64,000 bases of DNA from the IMG/VR virus record IMGVR_UViG_3300045988_133024, positions 1-64,000 of that record. The stretch is one strand, 5' to 3'. The notes beneath the pieces are model-generated. The model was not told the DNA's origin. It saw only the letters and a list, made by a program, of their open reading frames with translations, and did not search any database. Source of the DNA: a virus. The translations under genes were made by a program, and so were the position numbers. Position 1 is the first letter of the stretch; every line of letters starts with the position of its first letter. Shown here piece after piece: positions 2,999-53,061 of the stretch.

Positions 2999-3046
2999 TA
3001 ACTCATGTAAATGAAAATGCAACTGATGGAAGTTGAGGTACATGAA

Positions 3047-3502
3047 ATGAACGGATATACTAATAAAAAAGAAAATGGAAAGAGATACGACAAAGATGAA
3101 AAGAAACAATATGAATATGGGAAATATATGAAGCCGCATGTGTGGGAAATATATTTTGCCGATCTACCTGAAGTAGAAGATAGTCATATATTGTGTGGGT
3201 TACGACCAGTGATTGTGTTTTCAAATGATATATGCAATAGTACGAGTACGGAAATCAATGTTTATCCTCTAACTAAAAGGATAAGAAATTGGATTCCTAC
3301 ACATGTTACTATATGCAGAAATAAAACAAATGGTCTTAAAAGAAACTCTCAAGTGTATTGTGAGCAAGGACGAACAATTCCAAAACGGAATTTGTTAGAA
3401 TACTGGGGACAAGTAACCAACTTATCTCTTCAATTAAAAATTGCACATGCCATTATGATACAGAATGGTATGTTGTCATATATGAATGTGGCAGCGTCAT
3501 AG
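3047..3502 (+). CDS. hypothetical protein (alternative start at 3011)
   Basis: ORF 3011..3502. The internal ATG at 3047 is preceded by 'gaggt'. The 3011 ATG would be nearly leaderless from the promoter at 2969. Confidence 0.5.
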   Translation: MNGYTNKKENGKRYDKDEKKQYEYGKYMKPHVWEIYFADLPEVEDSHILCGLRPVIVFSNDICNSTSTEINVYPLTKRIRNWIPTHVTICRNKTNGLKRNSQVYCEQGRTIPKRNLLEYWGQVTNLSLQLKIAHAIMIQNGMLSYMNVAAS

Positions 3503-6308: not shown

Positions 6309-7706
6309 ATGGATAAAAATAAAACGGGCGTTTGGATACAGGACTTAGAAGGTAGAACGTACCCTTATAAAGAAGCAGATGGTACATATAAAGGAATTGT
6401 AGGAGATACAGTTATTGTTGGTACGTCTAGTATGATTGCTACATTTACAATTGAAAATATATCGTATCAAAAACTTCCATTTACAATGATTAATTACCAA
6501 ATTAAGCCAATGTATTTTGGAAAGAAGGATAACGATATATGGAAATCGTATGATTGCAGCGATGCCAAACAAATAGAGATGTTTCTGAGAGACGGTACAG
6601 CAGTGATTATTGTTCCGTTTGATTATGATAAAAGTCAGTATAGAACAAAAAGCATTTCTTCAGATGAAGCAATGATTACCTTTTATGAACAAAATCAGAA
6701 TAAGATGGAAACGATCTTGTTTGGTGAGCCGACAGTAGGGAAGACCTATCCACTTCAAACAATGAACGAGGATCTTGAGATTCAGACAGGTACGATTTCA
6801 GCCGACGAAATACAGGTTGATACATTGACTCTACCGTCACTTTCAGAAAGAAGAGTGTCTGCTCTGCCACACTATCAGCAAAAACCAATTACCGCAACGT
6901 CAGAACCAATAAAGAATGAGGCTGGTGAGCTTTCAACCACAGGGAAATCATGGATGATACATGACGACCGTGGGTTGAGTCCTTATGCACCAACACATAT
7001 TGATTGGAATGGTGAAATGAGTGCAACTTTAACATTTGCGCCAGAAAAATTGGATGAAATCATGAGTGAACTTACAGGAAACGAAGAGGAGAAAGATATG
7101 AATACAGAAAAATTAAAAGACAAAATCAAAAAAGTTATTTATGTAGACAAAGAGATGACAGTTAGGGAACCTGTTTTAGATAGTAATGGTAAGCCACTCG
7201 AAAGAGGTGGTAAACCAGTAACTAAGGCTAAATTTTACAGAGGTATGGTTAAGGTGGTTTGGAACTGTGGTACTGAAACTGTTGCTTATACAAGCAGATT
7301 CGACAGATTTAACAGAGAAGAAGGTTTCAAGACTTGTGTATTAAAATACCTGTTTGGTAACGCAGGTGCTCATGATGCAGTTGACTTCTGGACAAACAAA
7401 TATGTGAAATATCCAAGTAGCTGCATTGAAGTAACAGAAAATTTATGCAAATTGGAAGAGATCATCGAGAATGATAAGCAGAGAGAAGAGGAACGAAAAG
7501 GTTTGCCTTATGCAAAATTCTTAAGAAGAACGGTGGATCGTTTAGTACCTAGCTTTTCAGATGACAAATTACATTATGCACCAGAAGATGAAAAGCTTGC
7601 TAATGAATTTAAGAAATTAGCAAAGAAATATTTTCCAGAACTTAAATGTAGGGAAATTTATATTAATGATAGAAAACAGGAAGACGTTTTCGTAGCAATT
7701 AAATAA
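6309..7706 (+). CDS. hypothetical protein
   Basis: 465-aa ORF. RBS 'aaaggagaa'. Confidence 0.55.
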   Translation: MDKNKTGVWIQDLEGRTYPYKEADGTYKGIVGDTVIVGTSSMIATFTIENISYQKLPFTMINYQIKPMYFGKKDNDIWKSYDCSDAKQIEMFLRDGTAVIIVPFDYDKSQYRTKSISSDEAMITFYEQNQNKMETILFGEPTVGKTYPLQTMNEDLEIQTGTISADEIQVDTLTLPSLSERRVSALPHYQQKPITATSEPIKNEAGELSTTGKSWMIHDDRGLSPYAPTHIDWNGEMSATLTFAPEKLDEIMSELTGNEEEKDMNTEKLKDKIKKVIYVDKEMTVREPVLDSNGKPLERGGKPVTKAKFYRGMVKVVWNCGTETVAYTSRFDRFNREEGFKTCVLKYLFGNAGAHDAVDFWTNKYVKYPSSCIEVTENLCKLEEIIENDKQREEERKGLPYAKFLRRTVDRLVPSFSDDKLHYAPEDEKLANEFKKLAKKYFPELKCREIYINDRKQEDVFVAIK

Positions 7707-10768: not shown

Positions 10769-11365
10769 ATGGACGTTAATAAATTATTGGTTGTCGTCGA
10801 TATGCAGAATGATTTCATCGACGGAAGCCTTGGAACCAAAGAAGCACAGGAAATTGTTCCCAAAGTAATTGAGAAAATTAAAAATTTTGATGGCATTATT
10901 GTTACAACAATGGACACACACGATGAAAATTATTTATCTACACAGGAAGGAAAGAATCTTCCAGTAAAGCATTGCATCTGCGGAGAAGATGGATGGCATT
11001 TAAATGAAGAAGTTAGAAAGGCATTATTATCGTCAGAGATGTTTTGTCGCAATGACAAGCAAGAAAATGCTATTTGGCTTCTTGAGAACTATTGTAAAGA
11101 AACATTTGGGTCATTAGAACTTATGGACGATTGTTCTGATGAATTCGGTGAAGATGGTCGGTCTCACCCAGAAGATGTTGAAATTACACTCATTGGTCTT
11201 TGTACAGATATTTGTGTAATCTCCAACGCAATGTTATTAAAAGCAACGTTACCAGAGGCAAAGATTACTGTAGATGCATCGTGCTGCGCAGGCGTAACAC
11301 CAGAGAGCCACAAGAACGCACTCGAAGCAATGAAGATGTGTCAGATTGAAGTAATCAATGAGTAA
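10769..11365 (+). CDS. isochorismatase-family cysteine hydrolase, nicotinamidase (PncA)-like
   Basis: N-terminal 'LLVVVDMQNDFIDG' and the catalytic Cys context 'LIGLCTDICVISNA' are typical of the isochorismatase/nicotinamidase fold. Confidence 0.55.
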   Translation: MDVNKLLVVVDMQNDFIDGSLGTKEAQEIVPKVIEKIKNFDGIIVTTMDTHDENYLSTQEGKNLPVKHCICGEDGWHLNEEVRKALLSSEMFCRNDKQENAIWLLENYCKETFGSLELMDDCSDEFGEDGRSHPEDVEITLIGLCTDICVISNAMLLKATLPEAKITVDASCCAGVTPESHKNALEAMKMCQIEVINE

Positions 11366-11379
11366 AGGAGTGATGAAGG

Positions 11380-12216
11380 ATGATTACTATTGGTGGAGTA
11401 CCAGTTGTTCCAGAATCTTTTCCAGATGGAACACAGAAAATTGGTTTGCCGTTAGGAGCAATGAGATCACGGATTGCAGTAAATAAATTTGTATCAATTG
11501 AATGGCTGTATGAATCAGATAAAGAATTATTTTCGCTATATTGTATTTCAAAAAGTATTCGAGAATATTTCCCACATTTATCACAGTGTTTAGTGATGCC
11601 GTATATTCCGAATGCAAGATTTGACAGGGTTAAAGATCATAACGAATGTTTTACATTAAAATATTTTGCAGAAATCATCAATGAATTAAATTTTAGAAAT
11701 GTCATCGTAACAGATCCTCACTCAGACGTTTCTAAAGCATTGATTGATCACCTACAATATATACCAATTAAACTATATATTTCTAAGGTTTGCAATAAAG
11801 TCCTTAAAGCAGAGCCATCAAGAAATCTCGTAATTTATTTTCCAGATAGCGGATCACTAAAAAGATATTCTGAATTTGTATCAGATGATTATCCGATTGT
11901 CTATGGAATTAAAAATCGGGATTGGAAGACAGGAGAAATTCTTGGTATTGAGATTCATGGAGATACAGATAAATTAGATGAGAATACAGCAATTCTAATG
12001 ATTGATGATATTTGTAGTAAGGGTGGCACATTTTATTATGGATCAAAAGAATTAAACAAATACGGTTGTAAAGATATGTATTTATATGTTACTCACTGTG
12101 AAAACACAATTCTTGATGGCGAATTATTAAAGGAAGATAGTTTGTTTAAAAAAGTGTATACGACACGTAGTATTTTTACAAAAGAACATGAGAAAGTTGA
12201 GGTGTTAGATTTATGA
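11380..12216 (+). CDS. ribose-phosphate pyrophosphokinase (Prs)-like protein; candidate ADPR-pyrophosphate synthetase of a NARP1-type NAD+ reconstitution pair
   Basis: PRPP/phosphoribosyltransferase-type loop 'AILMIDDICSKGGTF'. A Prs-like 'VIVTDPHS' motif. The stop overlaps the start of the downstream NAMPT-like gene. Confidence 0.55.
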   Translation: MITIGGVPVVPESFPDGTQKIGLPLGAMRSRIAVNKFVSIEWLYESDKELFSLYCISKSIREYFPHLSQCLVMPYIPNARFDRVKDHNECFTLKYFAEIINELNFRNVIVTDPHSDVSKALIDHLQYIPIKLYISKVCNKVLKAEPSRNLVIYFPDSGSLKRYSEFVSDDYPIVYGIKNRDWKTGEILGIEIHGDTDKLDENTAILMIDDICSKGGTFYYGSKELNKYGCKDMYLYVTHCENTILDGELLKEDSLFKKVYTTRSIFTKEHEKVEVLDL

Positions 12217-13679
12217 AACAGACAAATCCAATGTTATTAATTGATTTTTATAAAGCAGTTCATGCTGAAATGTTACCAAAAGGTATTACAAAATCTGTTT
12301 CTTATTTTACTCCACGTATGAGCAGGGTAAAACGATGGAACGAAGTCGTGATGTTTGGGTTACAGGGATTCATTAAAGAATATCTGATTGATTATTTTAA
12401 TAAGAATTTCTTTGATCTTAAAGGTGGAGCAGTTACTTCTTACAAGAGGATTATGGACGCAGCTCTTGGAGAAAATACTTATGGATTACAGAAAATCGCA
12501 GATCTTTATGAGCTTGGTTATCTTCCGATTGAGATTAAAGCACTTCCCGAAGGAACTTTAGCACCAATGCATGTGCCGATGTTTAGTATTGAGAATACTC
12601 ACAAAGATTTTGCATGGTTACCACAGGCATTAGAAAGTTTAATTTCCGCAGAAATGTGGCATCCGATGATTGCTGCGACTGTCGGGCATACATATAGACA
12701 GATTGTTAATAAGTTTTATGAAATGACTTGTGATGATGATATTGTAAAAGCTAAAGCATTAGGGGCTTTCGATTTTCGTGGCGAAGAATGTTTACAGTCT
12801 GCGGTTAAAGCAGGAGTAGGATGGTGTTTATCATTCTTAAATACAGCTACGGTTCCAACAATTCCATATTTAGAGAGAAATTATAACTGCGATTGTACGA
12901 AAGAACCAGTTGCTTTTGGTAGTCCGTCTACTGAGCATGCGGTCATGTGTAGTAATTATGCGATTGACGGAGATGAAGAGACTCTGATTAAAAGATTACT
13001 TACAGAGATTTATCCAAACACAAGCTTCTCAGCAGTATTGGATTCTTATGATTATTGGAATGTTGTAGAGAATATTCTTCCAAAACTCAAGAACGAGATT
13101 ATGAATCACAATGGATGTTTTCTTGTCAGAGGAGACTCAGGAGATTGTGTAGATGTAGTAACCAGAACAGTATTTAAGTTATGGGAAGAGTTTGGGGGAA
13201 CGACAAATACAAAAGGGTATAAAGTATTAGATCCTCATGTAAAAGCAATTTATGGAGATTCAATTACAATACAGAGGTGTGAGCAGATTTATGACATCTT
13301 AGAGAAAAATGGATTCGCAGCAAGTAATGTTGCACTTGGCGTAGGATCATTCTCATTCCAGTGTATCGAAGAAGATGGAGTTTTAAAACCATTTACAAGA
13401 GATACATTTAGCAGTTGTATTAAAGCAACGTATTGTGAGATTGATGGCAAACCATATCCAATTTTCAAGAATCCAAAAGATGGCGGATTTAAGAAATCTC
13501 AGAGAGGTTTATGTTATGTCTATAAAGGATCAGACGGTAAATTGACATTTAAAGATGGATATACTTCAGAAAATCTTCCAATGAACAACCTGCTTGAGAC
13601 AGTATTTAGAGATGGCAAGTTGGTAAAAGAGCAGTCATTACAGGAGATTAGAAGAGTGTTAAACGAAGGAGAATTTTAA
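12213..13679 (+). CDS. nicotinamide phosphoribosyltransferase (NAMPT/NadV)-family protein; candidate Namat of a NARP1-type pair
   Basis: N-terminal 'LLIDFYKAVH' matches the NAMPT 'D-x-YK-x-H' signature. The length (488 aa) fits the family. Start overlaps the upstream Prs-like gene. Confidence 0.6.
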   Translation: MKQTNPMLLIDFYKAVHAEMLPKGITKSVSYFTPRMSRVKRWNEVVMFGLQGFIKEYLIDYFNKNFFDLKGGAVTSYKRIMDAALGENTYGLQKIADLYELGYLPIEIKALPEGTLAPMHVPMFSIENTHKDFAWLPQALESLISAEMWHPMIAATVGHTYRQIVNKFYEMTCDDDIVKAKALGAFDFRGEECLQSAVKAGVGWCLSFLNTATVPTIPYLERNYNCDCTKEPVAFGSPSTEHAVMCSNYAIDGDEETLIKRLLTEIYPNTSFSAVLDSYDYWNVVENILPKLKNEIMNHNGCFLVRGDSGDCVDVVTRTVFKLWEEFGGTTNTKGYKVLDPHVKAIYGDSITIQRCEQIYDILEKNGFAASNVALGVGSFSFQCIEEDGVLKPFTRDTFSSCIKATYCEIDGKPYPIFKNPKDGGFKKSQRGLCYVYKGSDGKLTFKDGYTSENLPMNNLLETVFRDGKLVKEQSLQEIRRVLNEGEF

Positions 13680-14191
13680 TGATTAAAATTATTGAAGGCG
13701 ATTTGTTTGATACAAATGCGAAATTTATTTGTCATCAAGTAAATTGTGCAGGAAAAATGGGATCTGGGGTAGCGTTACAGGTACGACAAAAATATCCGCA
13801 TGTATATAAAGAATATGAAAAAGTTGCTTCGGAAGATATGTTAGGGGAAGTACAGATCATACCAGTGAATTCAAAATTTATTGGACATGAACCAGGAGAT
13901 ATTTGGTGTGGTATGAAAGTAAAAGGGTTCAGGGAAACACAATGGATTTGTAATTTATTTGCTCAAAAGAGTTATGGATATGACGGCAAGCAGTATACTT
14001 CAAATGAAGCTTTAAGACAGTGCTTTAAAAAACTTGCAGGAATGGTGCATGAGAAAAACAATAACTTTGGACAAACAATCGCTATGCCATATAAAATTGG
14101 ATGTTGTCGTGGAGGATCTGATTGGAGTGATGTTGCCAATATTATCGAAGAAGAATTTAAAGATTGTAATGTAGAATTATGGAGGTTATAG
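13679..14191 (+). CDS. macro domain protein (ADP-ribose binding/processing)
   Basis: 'IEGDLFDT...ICHQVNCAGKMGSGVALQV' is a macro-domain signature. Confidence 0.6.
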   Translation: MIKIIEGDLFDTNAKFICHQVNCAGKMGSGVALQVRQKYPHVYKEYEKVASEDMLGEVQIIPVNSKFIGHEPGDIWCGMKVKGFRETQWICNLFAQKSYGYDGKQYTSNEALRQCFKKLAGMVHEKNNNFGQTIAMPYKIGCCRGGSDWSDVANIIEEEFKDCNVELWRL

Positions 14192-14194
14192 AAC

Positions 14195-14965
14195 ATGAGT
14201 TTTAATGCAAAAGAAACCAAAGACAGATTAGTGCAGTGGATTAGAGATTGGTTTGAAATTAATGGTAAAGGATGCAATGCCATTGTAGGAATTTCAGGAG
14301 GCAAGGATTCATCAGTTGTCGCAGCCTTATGCGTAGAAGCACTTGGCAAGAATCGAGTAATCGGTGTCATGATGCCACAGGGCGTACAGTCAGATATTGA
14401 GTATTCTCAGATGTTATGTAATCACTTAGGTATTGAAAATTATACAGTTAATATCTACGAGCCATGTTTAAGTATCAAGCATGAAGTATCAAGCGTATTA
14501 AATGGTAAATGGAGTAAGCAGAGTGCAACAAACTTACCTGCTCGTATCCGTATGGCTACATTATATGCTTTCGCACAGAGTATGAATGGTAGAGTGGCAA
14601 ATACTTGTAACTTATCTGAAGACTGGGTTGGATATGCGACCAGATATGGAGATTCAGCTGGAGATTTTAGTCCATTAAGTGATCTGACTGTGACAGAAGT
14701 TAAAGCAATTGGTAAAGTTCTGGGACTTCCAACAGAGTTAATCGAAAAAACTCCTACTGATGGGTTATGTGGCAAGACAGATGAAGATAATCTTGGATTT
14801 ACATACGAAGTGTTGGATGAATATATCAGAACAGGTGAATGCAAGGATAAAGTAGTGAGACAGATCATTGATGAAATGCATGAGAAGAATGTATTTAAAC
14901 TTGCTCCAATGCCTAAATTTATATCTGGTATGTGGATCGAGGCAGGAATGGAGTTGGATGATTAA
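14195..14965 (+). CDS. nadE: NH3-dependent NAD+ synthetase (NadE)-like PP-loop ATPase
   Basis: PP-loop 'GISGGKDSSV'. Size and architecture fit NadE. Confidence 0.65.
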   Translation: MSFNAKETKDRLVQWIRDWFEINGKGCNAIVGISGGKDSSVVAALCVEALGKNRVIGVMMPQGVQSDIEYSQMLCNHLGIENYTVNIYEPCLSIKHEVSSVLNGKWSKQSATNLPARIRMATLYAFAQSMNGRVANTCNLSEDWVGYATRYGDSAGDFSPLSDLTVTEVKAIGKVLGLPTELIEKTPTDGLCGKTDEDNLGFTYEVLDEYIRTGECKDKVVRQIIDEMHEKNVFKLAPMPKFISGMWIEAGMELDD

Positions 14966-14967
14966 TT

Positions 14968-15300
14968 ATGGAAATTAAAGCAAAATGGACAGGTTGTGGT
15001 TTTGCACATTGCGTTGGAGAATGGAAACTTTATGTTGACGGTAAGGATGTTACCAACAAAATTCCAGAAGACTTACGCACAGAACCTATGAATACATATA
15101 AAAGATATGAGCGATGGTATTTTAAGGACGGGGTTGAAGAATGGGAATCATATTATGACGGACTGAAACAAGATGAGTGGATTGAGACTAATAAGTATTG
15201 GTTAGATGAAATTACAACAGATATTGATGTTCAGCGCCAGATCTTCAAAGCAATCAACGAAGAGGATTTTCGCCCTAACTCATGTGGTGGGTGTATTTAG
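14968..15300 (+). CDS. hypothetical protein
   Basis: 110-aa ORF starting 3 nt after the NadE stop. Confidence 0.5.
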   Translation: MEIKAKWTGCGFAHCVGEWKLYVDGKDVTNKIPEDLRTEPMNTYKRYERWYFKDGVEEWESYYDGLKQDEWIETNKYWLDEITTDIDVQRQIFKAINEEDFRPNSCGGCI

Positions 15301-15365: not shown

Positions 15366-16826
15366 ATGATTGAAGTAATTGGAACAGTGGTACCAGTGGT
15401 TATTGCGGCAGGTGGCGTAGGAGCTATTATCGGTAGCGGTTATGTCAAAGCAAGTCCAGATAAAGCTTATATTATTTCTGGACTTAGAAAGACACCTAAG
15501 ACATTAATTGGTAAGGCAGGGTTAAAAATCCCATTCTTTGAAAAAGCAGATCATCTTAATCTTGAGTTAATTCCAATTGATGTCAAGACATCAAGTTCTG
15601 TGCCTACAGCAGATTATATCAATATCAATGTAGATGCAGCGGTCAATGTAAAGGTTAGCAGTAATCCAGAAAGATTAAAACTTGCAGCAGAAAACTTCTT
15701 AAATAAGCCAGTAGGCGATATTGGACAGGTCGCAAGAGAAGTCCTTGAAGGTAATATGCGAGAGATCGTTGGGAAGATGAGTCTCGAAGAAATGGTTTCT
15801 GATCGTCAGAAATTTGCACAGCTTGTTACAGAAAATGCGAAGCCAGATCTTGCTGCAATGGGATTAGATATTATCAGTTTTAATGTTCAGAATTTTATGG
15901 ATGATAATGATGTTATTGAAAATCTTGGTGTAGATAATGTTGTTAAAATCAAGAAGAAGGCTGCGATTTCCAGAGCTGAAAGCGAAAGAGATATTGAAAA
16001 AGCAAAAGCAATGGCTGAAAAAGAAGCAAATGATGCAAAGGTAGAGTCAGCAACAGCGATTGCAGAAAAGAATAACAATCTGGAGATTAAAAAATCTGAG
16101 CTTGAAAAGATTTCAAAAGCAAAGAAAGCTGAGGCAGATGCAGCATATAAGATCCAGGAAGAAAAATCACGTAAAGAAATTGAAGTTGTAACTGCGGATG
16201 CTAATATTATGCGTCAGGAAAAAGAAATTGAACTGAAACGCAAAGATGTTGAGGTAACAGAGCAGACATTAGATGCACAGATCAAGAAACAGGCAGAGGC
16301 TGAAAGATATGCTTCTCAGCAGAAAGCAGATGCAGACTTATACAAGAAACAGAAAGAATCTGAAGCTAACAAATATGCCAAAGAAAAAGAAGCCGAATCT
16401 ACAAAATATGCTATGGAGCAGGAAGCTGAAGGTATTCGTGCAAAGGGTGTAGCAGAAGCCGAGGCAATCAAAGCTAAAGGTATTGCTGAAGCAGAAGCAA
16501 TTGAAAAGAAAGCAGAAGCTATGAAACAGATGGGTAAAGCTTCTATTGTAGAAATGATGTGCCAGATGTTCCCAGAAGCAGTTAAAAATGCAGCAGCACC
16601 ATTAGGAAATGTAGGAAGTATCACTATGTATGGAGAAGGAAACACAACAAAATTAACAAAAGATATTATGAATGTTGTGAATCAGGTATCAGATGGTGTT
16701 AAAGGATCTACAGGTGTTGATCTTGCAAAGATGCTAAAAGATTTTGTTTCTGAAGATAAAGAAGCAGAATCTACAGATAATGTTGGTCAGCCAGAAGTAT
16801 ATTCAGACGATTATCGTGAGTTCTAA
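15366..16826 (+). CDS. SPFH/band-7 flotillin-like membrane protein
   Basis: N-terminal TM segment. Band-7 core 'YIISGLRKTPKTLIGKAGLKIPFFEKADHLNLELIPIDV'. Long Ala/Glu/Lys-rich coiled coil, as in FloT/YuaG. Confidence 0.65.
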   Translation: MIEVIGTVVPVVIAAGGVGAIIGSGYVKASPDKAYIISGLRKTPKTLIGKAGLKIPFFEKADHLNLELIPIDVKTSSSVPTADYININVDAAVNVKVSSNPERLKLAAENFLNKPVGDIGQVAREVLEGNMREIVGKMSLEEMVSDRQKFAQLVTENAKPDLAAMGLDIISFNVQNFMDDNDVIENLGVDNVVKIKKKAAISRAESERDIEKAKAMAEKEANDAKVESATAIAEKNNNLEIKKSELEKISKAKKAEADAAYKIQEEKSRKEIEVVTADANIMRQEKEIELKRKDVEVTEQTLDAQIKKQAEAERYASQQKADADLYKKQKESEANKYAKEKEAESTKYAMEQEAEGIRAKGVAEAEAIKAKGIAEAEAIEKKAEAMKQMGKASIVEMMCQMFPEAVKNAAAPLGNVGSITMYGEGNTTKLTKDIMNVVNQVSDGVKGSTGVDLAKMLKDFVSEDKEAESTDNVGQPEVYSDDYREF

Positions 16827-16840
16827 TAGGAGAAATTATT

Positions 16841-17575
16841 ATGACAATTATTATTATTTGTGTAATTGTAGCGATTATCGCATATTTACAATTTACTAAA
16901 AATGGAAAGCAGATTAAAAATGTAGCATCTGGAACAGTTACAGAGAAAATCAAAGAAAATGCAATGACCCCAGAGGGAGCAAGAGCCAGATATAATACTG
17001 CAATTAAAGAGAAACAGGACTTTTATAAGAAAACAATGGGTACATACACAACGGTGGCTGGTAGATTAGCAACAATGGAAGATGATCTCAAAGAAACTAA
17101 AGAAGAAATTTCTAAAACCGAGGCAATGATCAACCAGTACATTGATAACAATGATGACAAAAAAGCAATGTATTATGCTCAAAAATTAGCCACGCTAAAG
17201 GCACAGAAATCAGTGTACGAAAAGAAAATCCCAGAGTTGCAATCCACAAAAGATAAGCAAGAAGAAATTAAAAACCAAGCATATGATCAGCTCATTAAGT
17301 TAAAAGGCGAAAAAGATACTGTGGTTCTCCAGATGGAAGCGGATCAGCAGATTGCAGAATTGCAGAAAAATTTAGATCAATACAATAGTTCTAATGCTGC
17401 TCAGGAAGGATTGGAAGAGGTTCGAGAAGGAGCAAAGAAGCTTAGCGAACAAGCCAAAGGCGTTACCATTGCGTATGAATCTAGTGCAGAAACATTGGAT
17501 TATCATATGGAACAAGAAGAGCGACAGCAGGAAGCTAAAGCTATATTAGATCAGATGAAAAACGCTCGCAAATAG
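16841..17575 (+). CDS. membrane-anchored coiled-coil protein
   Basis: N-terminal TM 'MTIIIICVIVAIIAYLQF' followed by an extended coiled coil. Sits immediately after the flotillin gene. Confidence 0.5.
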   Translation: MTIIIICVIVAIIAYLQFTKNGKQIKNVASGTVTEKIKENAMTPEGARARYNTAIKEKQDFYKKTMGTYTTVAGRLATMEDDLKETKEEISKTEAMINQYIDNNDDKKAMYYAQKLATLKAQKSVYEKKIPELQSTKDKQEEIKNQAYDQLIKLKGEKDTVVLQMEADQQIAELQKNLDQYNSSNAAQEGLEEVREGAKKLSEQAKGVTIAYESSAETLDYHMEQEERQQEAKAILDQMKNARK

Positions 17576-23076: not shown

Positions 23077-24705
23077 ATGGCTAAGAAACAAAATAAAAAT
23101 ACGATGCAGATCAATAGAAAAATTACTTTAATTCCAGTTGCAAGTGACAATGATGGTTGGAAGAAGAAGATGAATACATATCTTGAAAAATTTTATTTTG
23201 ACAAGAAAATTAAAGCCAAAGAAAGACAAATCAAAAATACGAGTAAACCAGAAAGAAAAGAAGAATACAAACAGCAGCTTACAGAATATAAAAAGCAACA
23301 AGAACAGTTCTTAAATGGTGAGCTTGAAGATTATACAAAGCAGATGGTTATGAGTTATACATATGATTTGGTAAGAGACTGTATGGAAAGTGAAGCAAGA
23401 CAGAAGAATTTCATAATGTCTTATATGTTCTCAGAGATGATCAGAGAAAAGGTCTGCTACTTAAAAAACAAGAAAGAAAAGGAAAAATGGGTAAATGACA
23501 ATATCAATGTTGCATTTAGAGTTAAAGGATCACCAAAGGGAAGTATCTTTGACGATGTTGAGATTTATAGTCCATTAAGAGCATTGAGTATTCAGGGATA
23601 TACTCAGGAATTAAAGGGGAGAGTTAAGAAATTCGCCACTGATGGTGGTTTAGACGGGAAGTTGGCAGTCGATAATTATAAATTAGATTCGCCATTTCAT
23701 ATGTCAAAGCAAGGATTTGATATTGTTCATGAATATGAAGACTTGACAGAGCTTAAAAAGAATATTGGTAAATCAAGTTGTGAAATATATGTGAATCTTG
23801 GTAACGGTGGCGTTCCTACATTCGCAAGATTTCAATTAGATTTTGGACACAAAGGCAATCGAGAAGAGTTAATTTCTACAATTACAAAAGTATTTACTGG
23901 CGAATATAAAGTATGTGGAAGTTCAATTCAGATTAATAAAAAGAATAAGATTATATTAAATCTTGGACTTGAAATTCCAAAAAGACTTACTGAATTAGAT
24001 GAAAACACGGTAGTTGGAGTCGATCTTGGGTTAGCAGTTCCAGCTGTATGCTCTTTAAATAATAATCAGTATAAGAAAGAGTATATTGGGGACGGAGAAG
24101 CTTTTGTAAAACAGCGAGGCAAAATTCAAAAAGAAAAACAGAGACTACAAAAAGCATTGAAACTTTCAAAGGGTGGACATGGAAGAAAGAGAAAAATGTT
24201 AGCCTTAGAAAGATTCAAAGAAAGAGAAGCAAATTTTGTAAATACTTATTGTCATAGAATCAGTAAAAAAGTTGTTGAATATGCACTTAAGAATAATGCC
24301 AAATATATCAATATTGAGAATTTAAAAGGATATGATTCTAGTAAATTTATTCTGAGAAATTGGAGTTTCTACCAGCTTCAGCAAGATATTACATATAAAG
24401 CAGAAAGATATGGTATTGAAGTAAGAAAAATCAATCCTGCATTTACTTCTCAAGTATGTAGTTTCTGTGGGTATTGGGAATCTGGACAGAGAATAAATCA
24501 GAAAACTTTTAAATGCGGAAATCCAAATTGTAAGAGTCATAATCTCAAATTTTTCAATGCAGATTATAATGCTGCAAGAAATATTTCAATGTCAACATTG
24601 TTTACAAGTGACAATTATAAGTTTGGAAAAGAATCTTTGCAAAAAGCAGCAGATTATTACGGAATTGATTTAGAAATTGATTCTGAAGACCAAGAAATTG
24701 CTTAA
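23077..24705 (+). CDS. Cas12f/TnpB-like RNA-guided nuclease candidate (split RuvC domain plus zinc finger)
   Basis: RuvC-I 'VVGVDLGLAVPAV'. RuvC-II 'AKYINIENLKGY'. Zinc finger 'CSFCGYW..CGNPNCKSH'. RuvC-III 'NADYNAARNI'. At 542 aa with the D/E/D spacing, it resembles miniature type V effectors. No tnpA or cas1/cas2 is adjacent. Confidence 0.75.
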   Translation: MAKKQNKNTMQINRKITLIPVASDNDGWKKKMNTYLEKFYFDKKIKAKERQIKNTSKPERKEEYKQQLTEYKKQQEQFLNGELEDYTKQMVMSYTYDLVRDCMESEARQKNFIMSYMFSEMIREKVCYLKNKKEKEKWVNDNINVAFRVKGSPKGSIFDDVEIYSPLRALSIQGYTQELKGRVKKFATDGGLDGKLAVDNYKLDSPFHMSKQGFDIVHEYEDLTELKKNIGKSSCEIYVNLGNGGVPTFARFQLDFGHKGNREELISTITKVFTGEYKVCGSSIQINKKNKIILNLGLEIPKRLTELDENTVVGVDLGLAVPAVCSLNNNQYKKEYIGDGEAFVKQRGKIQKEKQRLQKALKLSKGGHGRKRKMLALERFKEREANFVNTYCHRISKKVVEYALKNNAKYINIENLKGYDSSKFILRNWSFYQLQQDITYKAERYGIEVRKINPAFTSQVCSFCGYWESGQRINQKTFKCGNPNCKSHNLKFFNADYNAARNISMSTLFTSDNYKFGKESLQKAADYYGIDLEIDSEDQEIA

Positions 24706-28135: not shown

Positions 28136-28957
28136 ATGACAATTGAAGAAGTAAAGGATTACATAAACTCGTCTACAGAGTATGACTTTTTGCGAGATTA
28201 TCCGCACAAAATCGCTTTTCTCACACTAGGTGGAAGTTATGCCTACGGAACAAATACAGAAGATTCTGATATTGATTTACGTGGTGTTTTCCTTAGTGAT
28301 AAAAGAGAGATTTTGTTGAATAATAATCAGAACAATCTTGAGAAGACCGATGACCATAAAGACATTGATACCGTGTTACATTCGCATATTAAGATGGTTA
28401 ATATGCTTGCTAAGGGCAATCCTACATTTTTAGAGTTGCTATACTTTGCACCAGACCGCTATCTGTATGTATCCGATATTGGTATGGAGTTGATCAAAAA
28501 TAGAGATATGTTCTTATCTAAGAGAGTTTGTCATGCATATAAAGGATATATTTGTGATTGCCTAGAACAAGCATACGTGAGATGTTCTAAATCAGACGAC
28601 ATTCAAAAGAAAACAAAATTTGCCAATAAATCAATGATACATGCTGTTCGTTTGTTGCTCCAAGTGATTCAATTACTACAATGTGGAACTATGTGTGGAA
28701 CAATTGAAGAAATAGGAAAAGACCTTATAGATATTAAGATGGGGTACAATACTTTGTGTGAAAAGAGACATCTTCCAGATGGCACTGAATGTACGGATTA
28801 TCGTCCAAACGAATCTTATAATGTGTTTACTAACAGACTATTGTCTGAATTTGAGTATGGGTACAAACATACAACCTTGCCAGACGAACCAGACTGGGAT
28901 CGTATCAATAACTTCTTGATGACAACAAATGAACGAATTGTGAGAGGAATGGTGTAA
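28136..28957 (+). CDS. Pol-beta-superfamily nucleotidyltransferase
   Basis: 'FLTLGGSYAYGTNTEDSDIDLRGVF' matches the NTase G[GS]x(9-13)DxD motif. Start trimmed to the ATG preceded by 'agaggtg'. Confidence 0.5.
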   Translation: MTIEEVKDYINSSTEYDFLRDYPHKIAFLTLGGSYAYGTNTEDSDIDLRGVFLSDKREILLNNNQNNLEKTDDHKDIDTVLHSHIKMVNMLAKGNPTFLELLYFAPDRYLYVSDIGMELIKNRDMFLSKRVCHAYKGYICDCLEQAYVRCSKSDDIQKKTKFANKSMIHAVRLLLQVIQLLQCGTMCGTIEEIGKDLIDIKMGYNTLCEKRHLPDGTECTDYRPNESYNVFTNRLLSEFEYGYKHTTLPDEPDWDRINNFLMTTNERIVRGMV

Positions 28958-29758: not shown

Positions 29759-30234
29759 GTGATGTATTTCAGATTTATTTGGCAGGCGGTATGCAGGATT
29801 TATCATTTGAAGATCAGAATGATTGGAGAGAAAGGGTTTGTCAGTCAATTATTACTAGACGTAGAATTCTTAATCCTCGCATAAAAGAAGTTAATGTGAT
29901 TAATCCAGTTGATTACTATAACTTTCAAGACGCATTGCATGATACAGAAAAAGAAGTAATGAGATTTGATACTAATTTTGTTCGAAACAGTGATCTCGTT
30001 GTGGTAAACACAAATGATCCGAAAAGTATTGGAACGTCTATGGAGATTGCAATTGCATATGAGCATCATATTCCTATATTAATTTTGAATACAGAGAATA
30101 AAACCCTACATTCTTGGTGGATCGAGATGTCTGATAAGATATTTGACGATGAGGAAAAATTATGTACATATATAACTGATTTTTATATCACAATGAACCA
30201 TAGTAGTGTTCGATCATGGGTGCAAATGCAATGA
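29755..30234 (+). CDS. nucleoside 2-deoxyribosyltransferase (Rcl/DNPH1)-like protein
   Basis: N-terminal 'IYLAGGMQ' and 'SIGTSMEIAIAYEHHIPILIL' carry the catalytic Glu, as in the deoxyribosyltransferase fold. Confidence 0.45.
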   Translation: MSDVFQIYLAGGMQDLSFEDQNDWRERVCQSIITRRRILNPRIKEVNVINPVDYYNFQDALHDTEKEVMRFDTNFVRNSDLVVVNTNDPKSIGTSMEIAIAYEHHIPILILNTENKTLHSWWIEMSDKIFDDEEKLCTYITDFYITMNHSSVRSWVQMQ

Positions 30235-48249: not shown

Positions 48250-50241
48250 ATGAAAACTGAATATGTGAAAGAAATGAATGTCTTGATCGACAGAATCAAT
48301 GATGCTTCATATGCGTACTACGCAGAGGATAATCCAATCATTTCAGATAAAGAATTTGACGATTTATGCGCTGCTTTAGAACGACTTGAGAGAGATTCTG
48401 GCGTTGTTTTGAATAATTCGCCCATCCACCACGTTCAAGGATTTGTAATTGATTCTCTGGCTAAAGTAAAGCATACACGCCCAATGTTATCGGCTCAGAA
48501 GACAAAGGATGTCAATGAGGTCAAAAAATTTCTTGCGGATAAAATTGGTGTTTTATCGTGGAAACTTGACGGATTGACGGTGGTACTAAGGTACGAAAAA
48601 GGACGCTTAAAACAAGCAATTACAAGGGGAAATGGAGAAATTGGAGAAGATGTGACTCATACAGCACGTATGATTTTCAATTTACCTCTTGAGATTCCTG
48701 ACAAGCGTAGTATTGAGGTACGTGGCGAATCAGTTATCAGTTATGAAAACTTCCAGAAAATCAATGAAGCATTGCATGGTAAATACAAGAACGCAAGAAA
48801 TCTGGCAGCAGGCACAATTAGACAGTTAGATGCGAATGTAGCAAAGGAAAGAAAGCTTGCCTATAAAGCATTTGAACTTGTTAAGATTGATGGTGTATCT
48901 GATAAAGAAATGCCAAGTATTGCAGATAGTTTTAAATATCTTGCAGAGCAGGGATTTGACGTTGTAGAACATCAGATTGTTAATCGAGATAATGTCGAAG
49001 AATATATTGAGAAATTTGATCCAGAGACATATGAATATCCTGTTGATGGTCTGATTTTTACTTATAACGATTATCAGTATGGTAAATCTCTTGGAACAAC
49101 GGGACATCATCCATTAAATATGATGGCATTAAAGTGGATCGATGATCTCTACGAAACAACAATCAGAGATATTGAATGGAATACATCTCGCACAGGATTA
49201 ATTAATCCAGTTGCAGTGTTTGATCCAGTTGATCTTGATGGTGCAGAAACTACAAGAGCTACATTACATAACGTAAGTTACATTGAGGGACTAGAACTTG
49301 GTGTAGGTGATACGATTCAAGTTTATCGTAGCAATATGGTAATTCCAAAAGTACACGATAATCTGACAAGAAGCAATACATTCAAGATTCCAGATACTTG
49401 TCCAACCTGCGGTGGCGCAGCAAAAATCATCAACGAAAATGGTAGTAAAGTCTTAAAATGCATGAATCCTGACTGCAAGGCAAAGCTATTAAGCAAGTTT
49501 GTGAACTTTGTTTCTAGAGATGCAATGAATATTCAAGGTTTATCTGAAGCAACACTGAAAAGATTTATTGATCTTGGATGGCTGAAAGATTATACAGATA
49601 TTTATAATTTAGCAGAGCATCAATCTGAGATGAAGAACCTTGATGGGTTTGGTGCAAAAAGTGTTTCTTCCTTATTAAATAGTATCGAGGAAAGTCGTAG
49701 ATGTAAACTGGTTAATTTCGTAACAGCACTTGGCATTGAACTTGTCGGGAAGTCAACAGCAAAGGATATTTGCAAACTTATTGATAAGATTTCCCTATCA
49801 AATAATGAAAATCCATACAATGTGTTTATCGAAAGAATCAAACAGAGGAAATATTTTGGTCATATTGATGGCATCGGTATTACAACTTCATTATCAATGG
49901 ATGCTTATTTCAAAGACAATCTTGAAATGGTTGAGAAATTAGCAGAAGAACTTGAATTTGAAATACCAGAAAGTAAGAAAGAATCTGCTGTTGATCTTAC
50001 AGGAATGACTTTTGTTGTAACTGGTAAGGTAAATAAGTTTGCCAATCGTAATGCGATCAAAGATGAAATTGAGTCCAGAGGTGGTAAGGTTGCAGGATCT
50101 GTATCAAAGAATACGAATTATCTTGTGAACAATGATGTGAATTCTACAAGCAGTAAGAATAAAAAGGCACAGCAGTTAGGCATTCCGATCATTGATGAAG
50201 ATGGGCTGATCAAGATTCTAAAAGGTGATATGAATGAATAA
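48250..50241 (+). CDS. ligA: NAD+-dependent DNA ligase
   Basis: Adenylation motif 'WKLDGLTV' (KxDG). Zinc-finger Cys cluster. C-terminal BRCT-like 'TFVVTGKVNKFANRNAIKDEIESRGGKV'. Confidence 0.8.
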   Translation: MKTEYVKEMNVLIDRINDASYAYYAEDNPIISDKEFDDLCAALERLERDSGVVLNNSPIHHVQGFVIDSLAKVKHTRPMLSAQKTKDVNEVKKFLADKIGVLSWKLDGLTVVLRYEKGRLKQAITRGNGEIGEDVTHTARMIFNLPLEIPDKRSIEVRGESVISYENFQKINEALHGKYKNARNLAAGTIRQLDANVAKERKLAYKAFELVKIDGVSDKEMPSIADSFKYLAEQGFDVVEHQIVNRDNVEEYIEKFDPETYEYPVDGLIFTYNDYQYGKSLGTTGHHPLNMMALKWIDDLYETTIRDIEWNTSRTGLINPVAVFDPVDLDGAETTRATLHNVSYIEGLELGVGDTIQVYRSNMVIPKVHDNLTRSNTFKIPDTCPTCGGAAKIINENGSKVLKCMNPDCKAKLLSKFVNFVSRDAMNIQGLSEATLKRFIDLGWLKDYTDIYNLAEHQSEMKNLDGFGAKSVSSLLNSIEESRRCKLVNFVTALGIELVGKSTAKDICKLIDKISLSNNENPYNVFIERIKQRKYFGHIDGIGITTSLSMDAYFKDNLEMVEKLAEELEFEIPESKKESAVDLTGMTFVVTGKVNKFANRNAIKDEIESRGGKVAGSVSKNTNYLVNNDVNSTSSKNKKAQQLGIPIIDEDGLIKILKGDMNE

Positions 50242-52236: not shown

Positions 52237-53061
52237 ATGGCTTTAATTGGAGCGATTCTAGGAGATATTTGCGGTTCTCAATATGAGTTCCGCAGACCTC
52301 ATAATTTAGATTGGAAGAACTGTGAATTGTTTACAGATAAATGTAAATACACAGATGATACAGTTCTTAGTATTGCAACAGGTATGTGGTTGTTAGATGA
52401 AACCAATAAAGAACCTTGGGAGTTCTACTTAGAATATGGCAAGAAATATCCTGGTATGGGATATGGTGAAATGTTTGAAGACTGGTTGTACGATGATGGA
52501 AATCGTGTTAATGAAAGCTTTGGCAATGGATGTGCCATGAGGATTTCACCTATTACAATGTATTTTAATGGATTTGTTGATCGTCCAGACGTATCGAATT
52601 ATTACATAGATTTAGCACAATGGACATGTGAGAAAACTCATCGTCATGTGGAATCTTACAAAGGTGCATCGATTGTAACAGGCTGTTCTTTGATGGCGCT
52701 ATGGGGTAAATCAAAAGAAGAAATTTATCAATATGCATTAAAAAGTTATCCATCTCACCAGTATACATATGGCATTGATCGACCACTCGATGATTATAGA
52801 AAGAATTATGTTTGGTCAGCAACAGTTCAAGATAGTGTACCTGTGGCAATCAGATGCTTTTTAGAGAGTGAAGATTATGAATCGTTTTTAAGAAACGTAT
52901 TGTCTTTGCCATGTGATACAGACACAATTGCTGCTATTGGCGGTGGCATTGCAGAGGATTTCTATAGAAAAACACTTGATAATTCAAATGATCTTTTAGA
53001 AAGATATCTTCCGAAAGAATTATTAGATGATGTGAGTAAAATCTACAATGAAATGCCATAA
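52237..53061 (+). CDS. ADP-ribosylglycohydrolase (ARH/DraG family)
   Basis: N-terminal 'MALIGAILGDICGSQYEF' matches the ARH signature. 274 aa. Confidence 0.6.
   Translation: MALIGAILGDICGSQYEFRRPHNLDWKNCELFTDKCKYTDDTVLSIATGMWLLDETNKEPWEFYLEYGKKYPGMGYGEMFEDWLYDDGNRVNESFGNGCAMRISPITMYFNGFVDRPDVSNYYIDLAQWTCEKTHRHVESYKGASIVTGCSLMALWGKSKEEIYQYALKSYPSHQYTYGIDRPLDDYRKNYVWSATVQDSVPVAIRCFLESEDYESFLRNVLSLPCDTDTIAAIGGGIAEDFYRKTLDNSNDLLERYLPKELLDDVSKIYNEMP

Follow-up and report, generated by a model that had tools for sequence, protein, structure and literature searches.

A phage operon joining an NARP1-type gene pair to a nicotinamidase and an NAD+ synthetase: a candidate deamidated route of NAD+ reconstitution

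Depletion of nicotinamide adenine dinucleotide (NAD+) is among the commonest anti-phage strategies of bacteria, and the phage reply, so far comprising the pathways NARP1, NARP1-AP, NARP2 and NARP3, is now being mapped. In NARP1, the kinase Adps converts ADP-ribose (ADPR) and ATP to ADPR-pyrophosphate (ADPR-PP), which the transferase Namat combines with nicotinamide to form NAD+ (Osterman et al., 10.1101/2024.02.11.579819). NARP1-AP, described in January 2026, includes Adpp, a macro-domain ADPR-1''-phosphate phosphatase that counters RES-type NAD+ phosphorylases and occurs in 15% of NARP1 phages (bioRxiv 10.64898/2026.01.28.702374). NARP2 consists of Nampt and Nmnat, and NARP3 of PnuC and NadR (PMC13464706). 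Here we describe a five-gene block in the viral record IMGVR_UViG_3300045988_133024 of IMG/VR, of which positions 1 to 64,000 were studied (hereafter the window, 64 kb of a roughly 160-kb genome). Like NARP1, the block is phage-borne, couples the translation of an Adps-family kinase to that of a Namat-family transferase, and would be expected to take in ADPR released by NAD+-cleaving enzymes (NADases). With a probability that we put at about 0.58, it is a deamidated variant of NARP1 that would rebuild NAD+ via nicotinate, through PncA, Adps, a Namat-like transferase and NadE.

All five open reading frames (ORFs) lie on the + strand, exactly where a first-pass annotation made from the letters of the window had placed them. 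Its five family calls (nicotinamidase-like, Prs-like, NAMPT-like, macro and NadE) were upheld by hidden Markov model (HMM) scans, and the peptides that it quoted (AILMIDDICSKGGTF, LLIDFYKAVH and GISGGKDSSV) are all found in the translations. The genes are as follows:

10769-11365, + strand: PncA-type nicotinamidase, 198 amino acids
11380-12216, + strand: Adps-family kinase, by its motifs not a bona fide phosphoribosyl pyrophosphate (PRPP) synthetase, 278 amino acids
12213-13679, + strand: Namat-like transferase with a remodelled pyridine pocket, 488 amino acids
13679-14191, + strand: macro-domain protein, a variable accessory, 170 amino acids
14195-14965, + strand: NH3-dependent NAD+ synthetase NadE, 256 amino acids

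Together they form one tightly packed operon. The PncA stop and the Adps start are 14 nucleotides apart, with an AGGAG Shine-Dalgarno sequence, the Namat start overlaps the Adps stop in an ATGA, the Namat and macro genes overlap in a TAATG, and only 3 nucleotides separate the macro stop from the NadE start. GGAGG-like Shine-Dalgarno sequences precede all five starts. A terminator scan found no terminator-like site on the + strand between 9700 and 17700, while a promoter scan was uninformative, promoter-like sites being rarer than in shuffled sequence.

Judged by its sequence, the kinase is of the Adps type and not a bona fide Prs. It stays below every Prs cut-off of NCBIfam (TIGR01251, 75.6 bits against 113), has no match to the Prs domain of Pfam and belongs to phrog_619 (224 bits). 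The Adps of the validated NARP1 operon of phage FADO likewise fails the Prs cut-off (96.5 bits against 113). In pairwise BLASTP the whole of the kinase aligns with FADO Adps at 34% identity (120 bits), against 24% for Escherichia coli Prs (42 bits). When 22 phage homologues were aligned with E. coli Prs, the traits that the kinase shares with FADO-type Adps and that are not found in Prs came out: about 20 N-terminal residues are missing, the motif K-x-R-[DN]-[WF]-x-T-G-x-I is present (residues 178-187, K178-N-R-D-W-K-T-G-E-I), and there is a three-residue insertion, CEN (THCEN, 238-242). The loop at 209-217 reads DDICSKGGT where Prs has DDMIDTGGT, and does not match the ribose-5-phosphate loop DDxxDTxGT. 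The predicted reaction is ADPR + ATP to ADPR-PP + AMP.

The transferase matches NAMPT_N, NAPRTase and NF006629 (433 bits), scores 388 bits against the structures 9w5x/9w5w of the Protein Data Bank (PDB), whose residue numbering agrees with that of the published SPbetaL1 Namat, and reaches about 170 bits against human and other NAMPTs. It is weak on the PncB model (TIGR01513, 23 bits against a cut-off of 297). Thus the Prs cut-offs that the kinase fails, the Adps motifs that it has in common with FADO and the 388 bits against a Namat structure place the pair in the Adps/Namat lineage, as the first-pass annotation had proposed, and HMM classification grouped the two proteins with neither bona fide Prs nor canonical NadV. 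A close homologue bears the NCBI name ‘nicotinate phosphoribosyltransferase’, which we rejected as evidence for nicotinate use because the name derives from NF006629 (PRK09198), a model that FADO Namat also matches (582 bits).

It is in the active site that the transferase departs from its relatives. In the crystal structure of SPbetaL1 Namat the nicotinamide pocket is formed by F189, R192, D215, A242, R306, D13' and Y15', and a ‘selectivity clamp’ holds the adenine, to which the SCL loop contributes R40 and the SCH motif GSXΦXΦXΦTRD its aromatics at positions 3 and 7 (PMC12774641). We mapped the published contact residues on an alignment of 162 phage homologues, 82 of which form a clade with the window protein. 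The window protein keeps D11, Y13, F186, R189, R306, D308, G348, D349, G378, S379, T395, R396 and D397, and the catalytic His motif STEH (H242) can be read from its sequence and from the alignment to the matched structure. Catalytic, ribose and phosphate residues (R306, D308, G360, D361, G390, R399 and D400 in SPbetaL1 numbering) and the stacking residues F189, Y15', D13' and R192 are invariant in the clade, as in NARP1. Three positions around the 3-substituent of the pyridine have changed: D215, the equivalent of human NAMPT D219, is A212 in the window (Ala in 77 of 82 clade members, Ser in the other 5); A242 is S239 (Ser in all 82); and G213 is N210 (Asn in 76, Lys in 5, Arg in 1). In addition, S190 is replaced by D187 (Asp in 70/82) and Y396 by C384 (Cys in 74/82).

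The adenine clamp, on the other hand, is partly retained. Its SCL stacking residue, which in NARP1 may be Arg, Lys or Tyr, is present in the window (TPRMSR, with R38 aligned to SPbetaL1 R40; Arg in 76/82) together with the first SCH aromatic (F380, equivalent to F392; 81/82), both as in NARP1. In contrast to NARP1, the SCH motif itself is not matched: residues 378-397 read GSFSFQC-IEEDGVLKP-FTRD, with Phe at position 3 and Cys in place of the second aromatic at position 7, and the motif is split by an insertion in the clamp helix of 9 amino acids in the window (residues 385-393; nucleotides 13359-13385) and of 9-34 amino acids in 82/82 clade members. This insertion is always followed by Pro-Phe-Thr-Arg-Asp or, in the Ser sub-clade, Val-Val-Thr-Arg-Asp.

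In SPbetaL1 Namat, D215 hydrogen-bonds nicotinamide, and the D215A mutant yields about 8-fold less NAD+ (PMC12774641). The equivalent Asp219 sets the substrate specificity of human NAMPT, where D219S is reported to switch substrate affinity (PMC7096376, PMC4919578), and the nicotinate-specific human NAPRT has Ser214 at this position, which is said to steer specificity to nicotinate (PMC4442680). The same position that decides between amide and carboxylate in the human enzymes thus carries Ala or Ser throughout the clade. Two further human NAMPT substitutions, G217R and A244M, block inhibitor binding (PMC4919578); by numbering offset, these residues would correspond to SPbetaL1 G213 and A242. 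Because the amide-binding Asp is lost and the SCH motif broken, the block probably does not run the published step from ADPR-PP and nicotinamide to NAD+, and formation of deamido-NAD (NaAD) from nicotinate seems likelier, the predicted reaction being ADPR-PP + nicotinate to NaAD + pyrophosphate (PPi). The NARP1 logic that the first-pass annotation had read into the pair therefore holds at the family level, while its nicotinamide transferase step is doubtful.

A predicted source of nicotinate and a predicted use for NaAD are both at hand in the operon. The first gene product belongs to the Isochorismatase family (PF00857, 66 bits), aligns to archaeal and bacterial nicotinamidases and has nicotinamidases/pyrazinamidases as its best PDB matches (1ilw/1im5, 49.5 bits). 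Its triad D11/K110/C149 and nicotinamidase-specific metal site D49/H51/H68 align to those of Pyrococcus horikoshii PncA, and each residue is kept in at least 95% of 76 clade homologues. It is nevertheless a divergent member, below the pncA equivalog cut-off of NCBIfam (NF008623, 28.7 bits against 174). The last gene product matches TIGR00552 (190 bits, cut-off 63.65) and NAD_synthase (PF02540, 189 bits), its best PDB matches are all NH3-dependent NAD synthetases (2e18, 128 bits), its PP-loop S34-G-G-K-D-S39 is conserved, and it is a single domain with no glutaminase domain. Both enzymes look functional, with predicted reactions of nicotinamide + H2O to nicotinate + NH3 for PncA and NaAD + NH3 + ATP to NAD+ + AMP + PPi for NadE, and the NH3 freed by the former may be the NH3 used by the latter.

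The enzyme that would normally supply NaAD, NadD, was searched for in several ways. There was no Pfam match to NadD/CTP_transf_like among the + strand ORFs of at least 147 amino acids in the window outside the block and its immediate neighbours, and no NadD/NMNAT HxGH motif in a six-frame motif search of the window. As a tblastn query, phage G NadD matched neither the window nor the complete genome of Phass-1, which belongs to the clade and carries the same block. Bacillus phage G (L167, NC_023719.1 200614-213300; L numbers denote our loci) offers a comparison, as it has a PncA-like gp275, PncB gp277 (TIGR01513, 553 bits), NadD gp281 (TIGR00482, 142 bits) and NadE gp283 in one block. This Preiss-Handler set shares with the window block its first enzyme, a nicotinamidase, its last, an NH3-dependent NAD synthetase, and, as predicted for the window, a course via nicotinate and deamido-NAD. 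Where phage G has PncB, which makes nicotinate mononucleotide (NaMN) from PRPP, and NadD, which adenylates it, the window has Adps and the Namat-like gene, so the AMP moiety would come pre-attached in ADPR and not from ATP. The phage G block also holds a KptA-like gene (gp280) amid the set, with a NUDIX gene nearby.

The comparison with phage G brings up another reading, a phage Preiss-Handler route via PRPP, in which the Prs-like kinase would make PRPP, the NAMPT-like enzyme NaMN, the host NadD the adenylated product and the phage NadE NAD+. Phage G shows that a Preiss-Handler set can be phage-encoded, the switched pocket would suit nicotinate, the adenine clamp has changed, and SPbetaL1 Namat takes PRPP in vitro when no ADPR-PP is supplied (10.1101/2024.02.11.579819; PMC12774641). 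Still, we regard this route as rather improbable because of the Adps signature of the kinase and the clamp residues that are kept. Motifs specific to Adps are present in the kinase, which, like FADO Adps, reaches none of the Prs cut-offs; purified SPbetaL1 Adps acted on ADPR and was not Prs-like (10.1101/2024.02.11.579819), and R38 and F380 are kept in at least 76 of the 82 clade members. Moreover, accessories that process ADPR (macro and Tpt1) cluster with the block, and no NadD was found in the scanned ORFs of the window or in Phass-1.

Returning to the deamidated NARP1 variant, the pathway would run in four steps, as opposed to two in NARP1. A host NADase of the SIR2, TIR or SEFIR type would cleave NAD+ to ADPR and nicotinamide; PncA would convert the nicotinamide to nicotinate and NH3, and the Adps-family kinase ADPR to ADPR-PP. 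The Namat-like enzyme, in which the acidic residue that binds the amide is gone and Ser and Asn/Lys/Arg have come into the pocket, would then join nicotinate and ADPR-PP directly to NaAD, and not to NAD+ as in NARP1, bypassing both PncB and NadD, and NadE would turn NaAD into NAD+ at the expense of one more ATP. An optional feeder might be the macro protein, which, as in NARP1-AP, would release free ADPR from ADPR-1''-phosphate left by RES-type NAD+ phosphorylases, or from other ADPR conjugates or ADP-ribosylated targets. We infer all of these substrates and products, as well as the anti-defence role, from the gene families, the conserved catalytic sites, the pocket substitutions and the gene linkage. 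The first-pass annotation had guessed at deamidated derivatives, and the NaAD route suggests that it pointed in the right direction. The ADPR-directed accessories (macro, Tpt1) share the slot between Namat and NadE, and their presence there fits ADPR, not ribose-5-phosphate, as the substrate.

Whether the Namat-like protein is in fact a nicotinate ADP-ribosyltransferase, an activity not described before, which with PncA, Adps and NadE would constitute a fourth, ‘deamido’ pathway of NAD+ reconstitution, is in our estimate an even bet. If it is, nicotinate + ADPR-PP to NaAD would be a new reaction that short-circuits the Preiss-Handler pathway by replacing PncB and NadD. Nature would then have used the switch from Asp to Ser or Ala, as engineered in human NAMPT, to re-target a Namat, and the position would provide a simple sequence marker for predicting the substrate. 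As a proposed enzymatic reaction, this is a specific and directly testable prediction.

Gene content follows the pocket residue. We collected loci with 8-kb flanks from IMG/VR, 80 by means of the window protein and 80 by means of FADO Namat, which together with MT835544, Phass-1 and FADO gave 163. The 82 loci with Ala or Ser at the pocket position contain Adps in 80 cases, PncA in 75, NadE in 75, both PncA and NadE in 70 and a macro gene in 25, with absences mostly due to contig ends. Among the 81 loci with Asp or Glu (Glu in 18), Adps was present in 77 and a macro gene in 6, while neither PncA nor NadE was found in a single one. These absences count because the query proteins are sensitive enough, the NadE query reaching phage NadEs at 26% identity and the PncA query the phage G isochorismatase at 27%. 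The triple change (Asp lost, Ser239, Asn/Lys/Arg210) is thus fixed only in the set of loci with PncA and NadE. A scan of species-representative genomes added 57 loci, with Ala at all 56 of 57 pocket positions that could be read, and among the 31 with full flanks PncA and Adps occur in 31 each, NadE in 28 and macro in 4. Elsewhere in phages NadE is rare, being found in 47 of 50,697 phage records and a Namat/Nampt homologue in 2,044.

This gene set recurs in 80 viral contigs of IMG/VR, 57 contigs of genomes or metagenome-assembled genomes (MAGs), phage Phass-1 and GenBank MT835544, a recurrence that is not due to chance. At the nucleotide level, a megablast search of the block against the 50,697 phage records gave no match, relatives being seen only at the protein level. 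The order PncA-Adps-Namat-NadE is kept in 50 loci, a macro gene lies between Namat and NadE in 11, and PncA follows NadE in 3, MT835544 included. The flanking genes of the window were found at none of the 57 genome loci, where the module itself is kept. As flanking genes differ and gene order is shuffled while the set stays together, PncA-Adps-Namat-NadE travels as a unit. These four genes are the conserved core. The first-pass annotation had seen the NARP1 pair as extended by three more genes; of these, PncA and NadE turn out to be conserved partners and not add-ons, and only the macro gene (25/82 loci) is a variable accessory. The region upstream of Adps in MT835544.1 (L001) holds a 249-amino-acid ORF (6538-7287) with a ligase-type KxDG motif (EKVDGTNVR), and an ORF of 367 amino acids, also directly upstream of Adps, has the look of a P-loop ATPase by eye.

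It might be argued that the block is a standard NARP1 or NARP1-AP whose Namat still uses nicotinamide, while PncA and NadE boost the host Preiss-Handler pathway (PncB, NadD) in parallel. The membership of both proteins in the Adps and Namat families, the catalytic residues and the portion of the adenine clamp that they preserve, and the adjacent macro domain as in NARP1-AP would all agree with this, and the Namat active site evidently tolerates some variation, given the 18 canonical loci with Glu for Asp. Yet we hold it to be unlikely because the phage nicotinamidase would break down the very nicotinamide on which such a Namat depends. The D215A change that cuts NAD+ synthesis 8-fold in SPbetaL1 (PMC12774641) also speaks against it, and so does the fixation of the pocket changes in exactly the loci with PncA and NadE and never elsewhere.

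Several points weigh against the deamidated route that we favour. The two sets of loci, chosen because they resemble one or the other of two queries, are no random sample, and the Ala/Ser group forms one clan in a neighbour-joining tree, which indicates a single origin. The complete split in pocket, PncA and NadE therefore reflects one event kept over deep divergence (Namat identity in the clade is as low as 34%, the median being 67%; SPbetaL1, the closest sequence outside it, is at 48%) and not repeated convergence. NadE or PncA is missing within 8 kb in a few full-flank loci (L028, L046, L067, L194 and L200, and also L223, 15.4 kb). The choice of substrate is read from three pocket residues together with gene linkage. 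NaAD as the substrate of NadE is assumed, because the second-best structural match of the latter is 3fiu from Francisella, which we take to be a NaMN-preferring enzyme. The change of Tyr396 to Cys and the insertion of 9-34 amino acids mean that a preference for ADPR-PP over PRPP is not assured. Ala at position 215 alone is no proof of nicotinate use, as D219A in human NAMPT is listed as a loss of activity and not as a switch (PMC4919578); the human enzymes, however, use PRPP, and the Ala of the clade is joined by Ser239 and Asn210. Finally, the route costs an extra ATP, and any advantage that pays for it is conjectural. Nicotinate being the available pyridine in gut Clostridia, irreversibility gained by the NadE step, or the retention of a charged base in the cell are possibilities that might repay this cost.

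A search for further lineages in which NadE had independently come together with a Namat lacking the Asp brought no convergent support from any candidate. The ‘NadE-like’ genes of cyanophages and pelagiphages are located in sugar-modification clusters, and Agrobacterium phage Atu_ph07, Acinetobacter phage ME3, a 642-kb uncultured phage and MT835800 have NadE with no Namat nearby. In Xanthomonas phage X1 (L232, OQ427096.1 98942-115574) Nampt keeps the Asp of GTDT and Nmnat is present, so that the set is NARP2-like; the distance from NadE is about 2 kb to Nmnat and about 3.5 kb to Nampt, with an ADP-ribosyltransferase gene nearby. Evidently, NadE can also accompany sets of the NARP2 type. The window block has in common with NARP2 and NARP3 that these are phage pathways restoring NAD+ under NAD+-depleting defence. 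It differs from them in that its transferase groups with Namat, Adps is present, and neither Nmnat nor NadR nor PnuC turned up in the window; NARP3, defined by PnuC and NadR, was rejected as an explanation. We found no description in the literature searched of NARP1 genes joined to a nicotinamidase and NadE, or of a deamido-NAD variant, and those passages of the phAss-1 genome paper that contain NAD terms discuss no NAD pathway. The macro extension having been described before, the novelty of the block resides in its conserved PncA-Adps-Namat(Ala/Ser)-NadE module, as a variation on a known type of system.

The macro protein itself matches PF01661 (27.7 bits, cut-off 22) and phrog_335 ‘phosphatase’ (140 bits), a widespread phage family with 1,180 phage records. 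Its best matches are of the DarG/TARG1 type (5m3i, 40.8 bits, and 5m31 in the PDB; NF048014, 72.7 bits against a cut-off of 250), and it resembles yeast Poa1p weakly (6lfu, 25 bits, E = 1.4e-4). It is 42% identical to a FADO protein annotated as ‘ADP-ribose 1''-phosphate phosphatase related’ and 27-28% identical to the homologous macro proteins inside canonical NARP1 operons (L091, with the order Adps-macro-Namat, and L163). Most likely, it is an Adpp-like ADPR-1''-phosphate phosphatase or has another de-ADP-ribosylating activity, either of which would give free ADPR. Of the clade loci, 36 have nothing in the slot that it occupies between Namat and NadE, 18 have a macro-family ORF there, and 15 an ORF of 134-139 or 251 amino acids with a DxDxT (HAD-like) motif, CVDFDDTLYD (e.g. 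L033:1662-2417, L168:11470-11880 and L082:7582-8001). The latter matches nothing in Pfam and has a single weak match, to the HAD-type phosphatase BT0820 (26 bits), and it may be an alternative phosphatase in the role of the macro protein. In two loci the slot contains an RNA 2'-phosphotransferase, Tpt1/KptA, together with a SLOG protein; in one of these, L080 of the Ser-type sub-clade, they score 165 bits on PF01885 and, as a YspA-type SLOG, 50 bits on PF10686 (9952-10491, 11409-11834). Tpt1 uses up NAD+ in a reaction that produces ADPR-1'',2''-cyclic phosphate, and the ligands of SLOG domains are signals derived from ADPR.

With regard to NARP1-AP, which is defined by a macro domain of PF01661, PF14519 or PF20016 within two genes of NARP1, the window has a PF01661 macro gene directly downstream of the Namat-like gene. 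It differs from NARP1-AP in the order Namat-macro-NadE as opposed to Adps-macro-Namat, in the presence of a macro gene in only about 30% of the clade loci, with a HAD-like ORF in others, and in having DarG/TARG1-type proteins as the best macro matches, which makes the assignment as an ADPR-1''-phosphate phosphatase tentative. The first-pass annotation was right about the domain, but as an extension of the pair it is no novelty, having been published as NARP1-AP (10.64898/2026.01.28.702374).

NAD+ could also serve the phage itself. The NAD-dependent ligase that the first-pass annotation had linked to NAD+ levels is indeed encoded at 48250-50241 on the + strand (PF01653, 165.6 bits, plus OB and BRCT domains), and an ADP-ribosylglycohydrolase lies at 52237-53061 (+; PF03747, 94 bits), about 37 kb from the NAD block. 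The block might accordingly be auxiliary metabolism, overproducing NAD+ for the NAD+-consuming enzymes of the phage (the ligase, possibly ADP-ribosylation cycles) and not for anti-defence, and nothing ties the phage to a particular defence system. We consider this the least probable of the alternatives, given that the anti-defence role of canonical NARP1 was demonstrated in several phages (10.1101/2024.02.11.579819); besides, it concerns purpose and not mechanism, and would be compatible with the deamidated route. The glycohydrolase, as a second ADPR-releasing enzyme, might act against ADP-ribosylating defences or supply Adps with ADPR.

The whole element, roughly 160 kb in size, is a phage or prophage of (gut) Clostridia. 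Besides an integrase and a PemK toxin, the window encodes anaerobic NrdDG and a replication module that, along with the NAD-dependent ligase, comprises PolIII alpha, a DnaB-like and a RecD-like helicase, DHH (RecJ-like) proteins and an ERCC4 nuclease. The tyrosine integrase, the PemK/MazF-type toxin and a TnpB/Cas12f-like OrfB (799-1761, 3011-3502 and 23077-24705, all +), together with a relative in the chromosome of Mogibacterium pumilum (L222, NZ_CP016199.1 1143323-1160792), suggest a temperate or integrative lifestyle. Further relatives were found in many MAGs of Lachnospiraceae, in an assembly of Filifactor villosus and, as a syntenic contig, in that of an Anaerostipes sp. isolate. Homologues abound in gut metagenomes, with at least 8,000 at E <= 1e-20. 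It may equally well be true as not that the ‘deamido’ pathway is common among the phages and prophages of gut Clostridia, and was missed since these phages are nearly absent from cultured-phage databases. If it is, NAD+-centred counter-defence would reach very abundant phages of human and animal gut Clostridia.

The region downstream of NadE looks like a variable membrane-stress cassette. On the + strand of the window it consists of a 110-amino-acid ORF with a weak TscA-antitoxin match (14968-15300; its counterpart in L168 matches PF27390, PM0253), an SPFH/flotillin protein of 486 amino acids (15366-16826) and a coiled-coil ORF of 244 amino acids (16841-17575). At this place (compare L168:12643-17891), the syntenic contig associated with Anaerostipes carries instead a cation ATPase, vWA-TerF and TerD, along with a weak match to PspA. 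A tRNA scan of the window found none. Elsewhere on the + strand, the window encodes an RNA-repair nucleotidyltransferase of the RlaP type (28136-28957; PF10127, 85 bits) and a nucleoside 2-deoxyribosyltransferase-like protein with a borderline match (29791-30234; PF05014, 28.7 bits).

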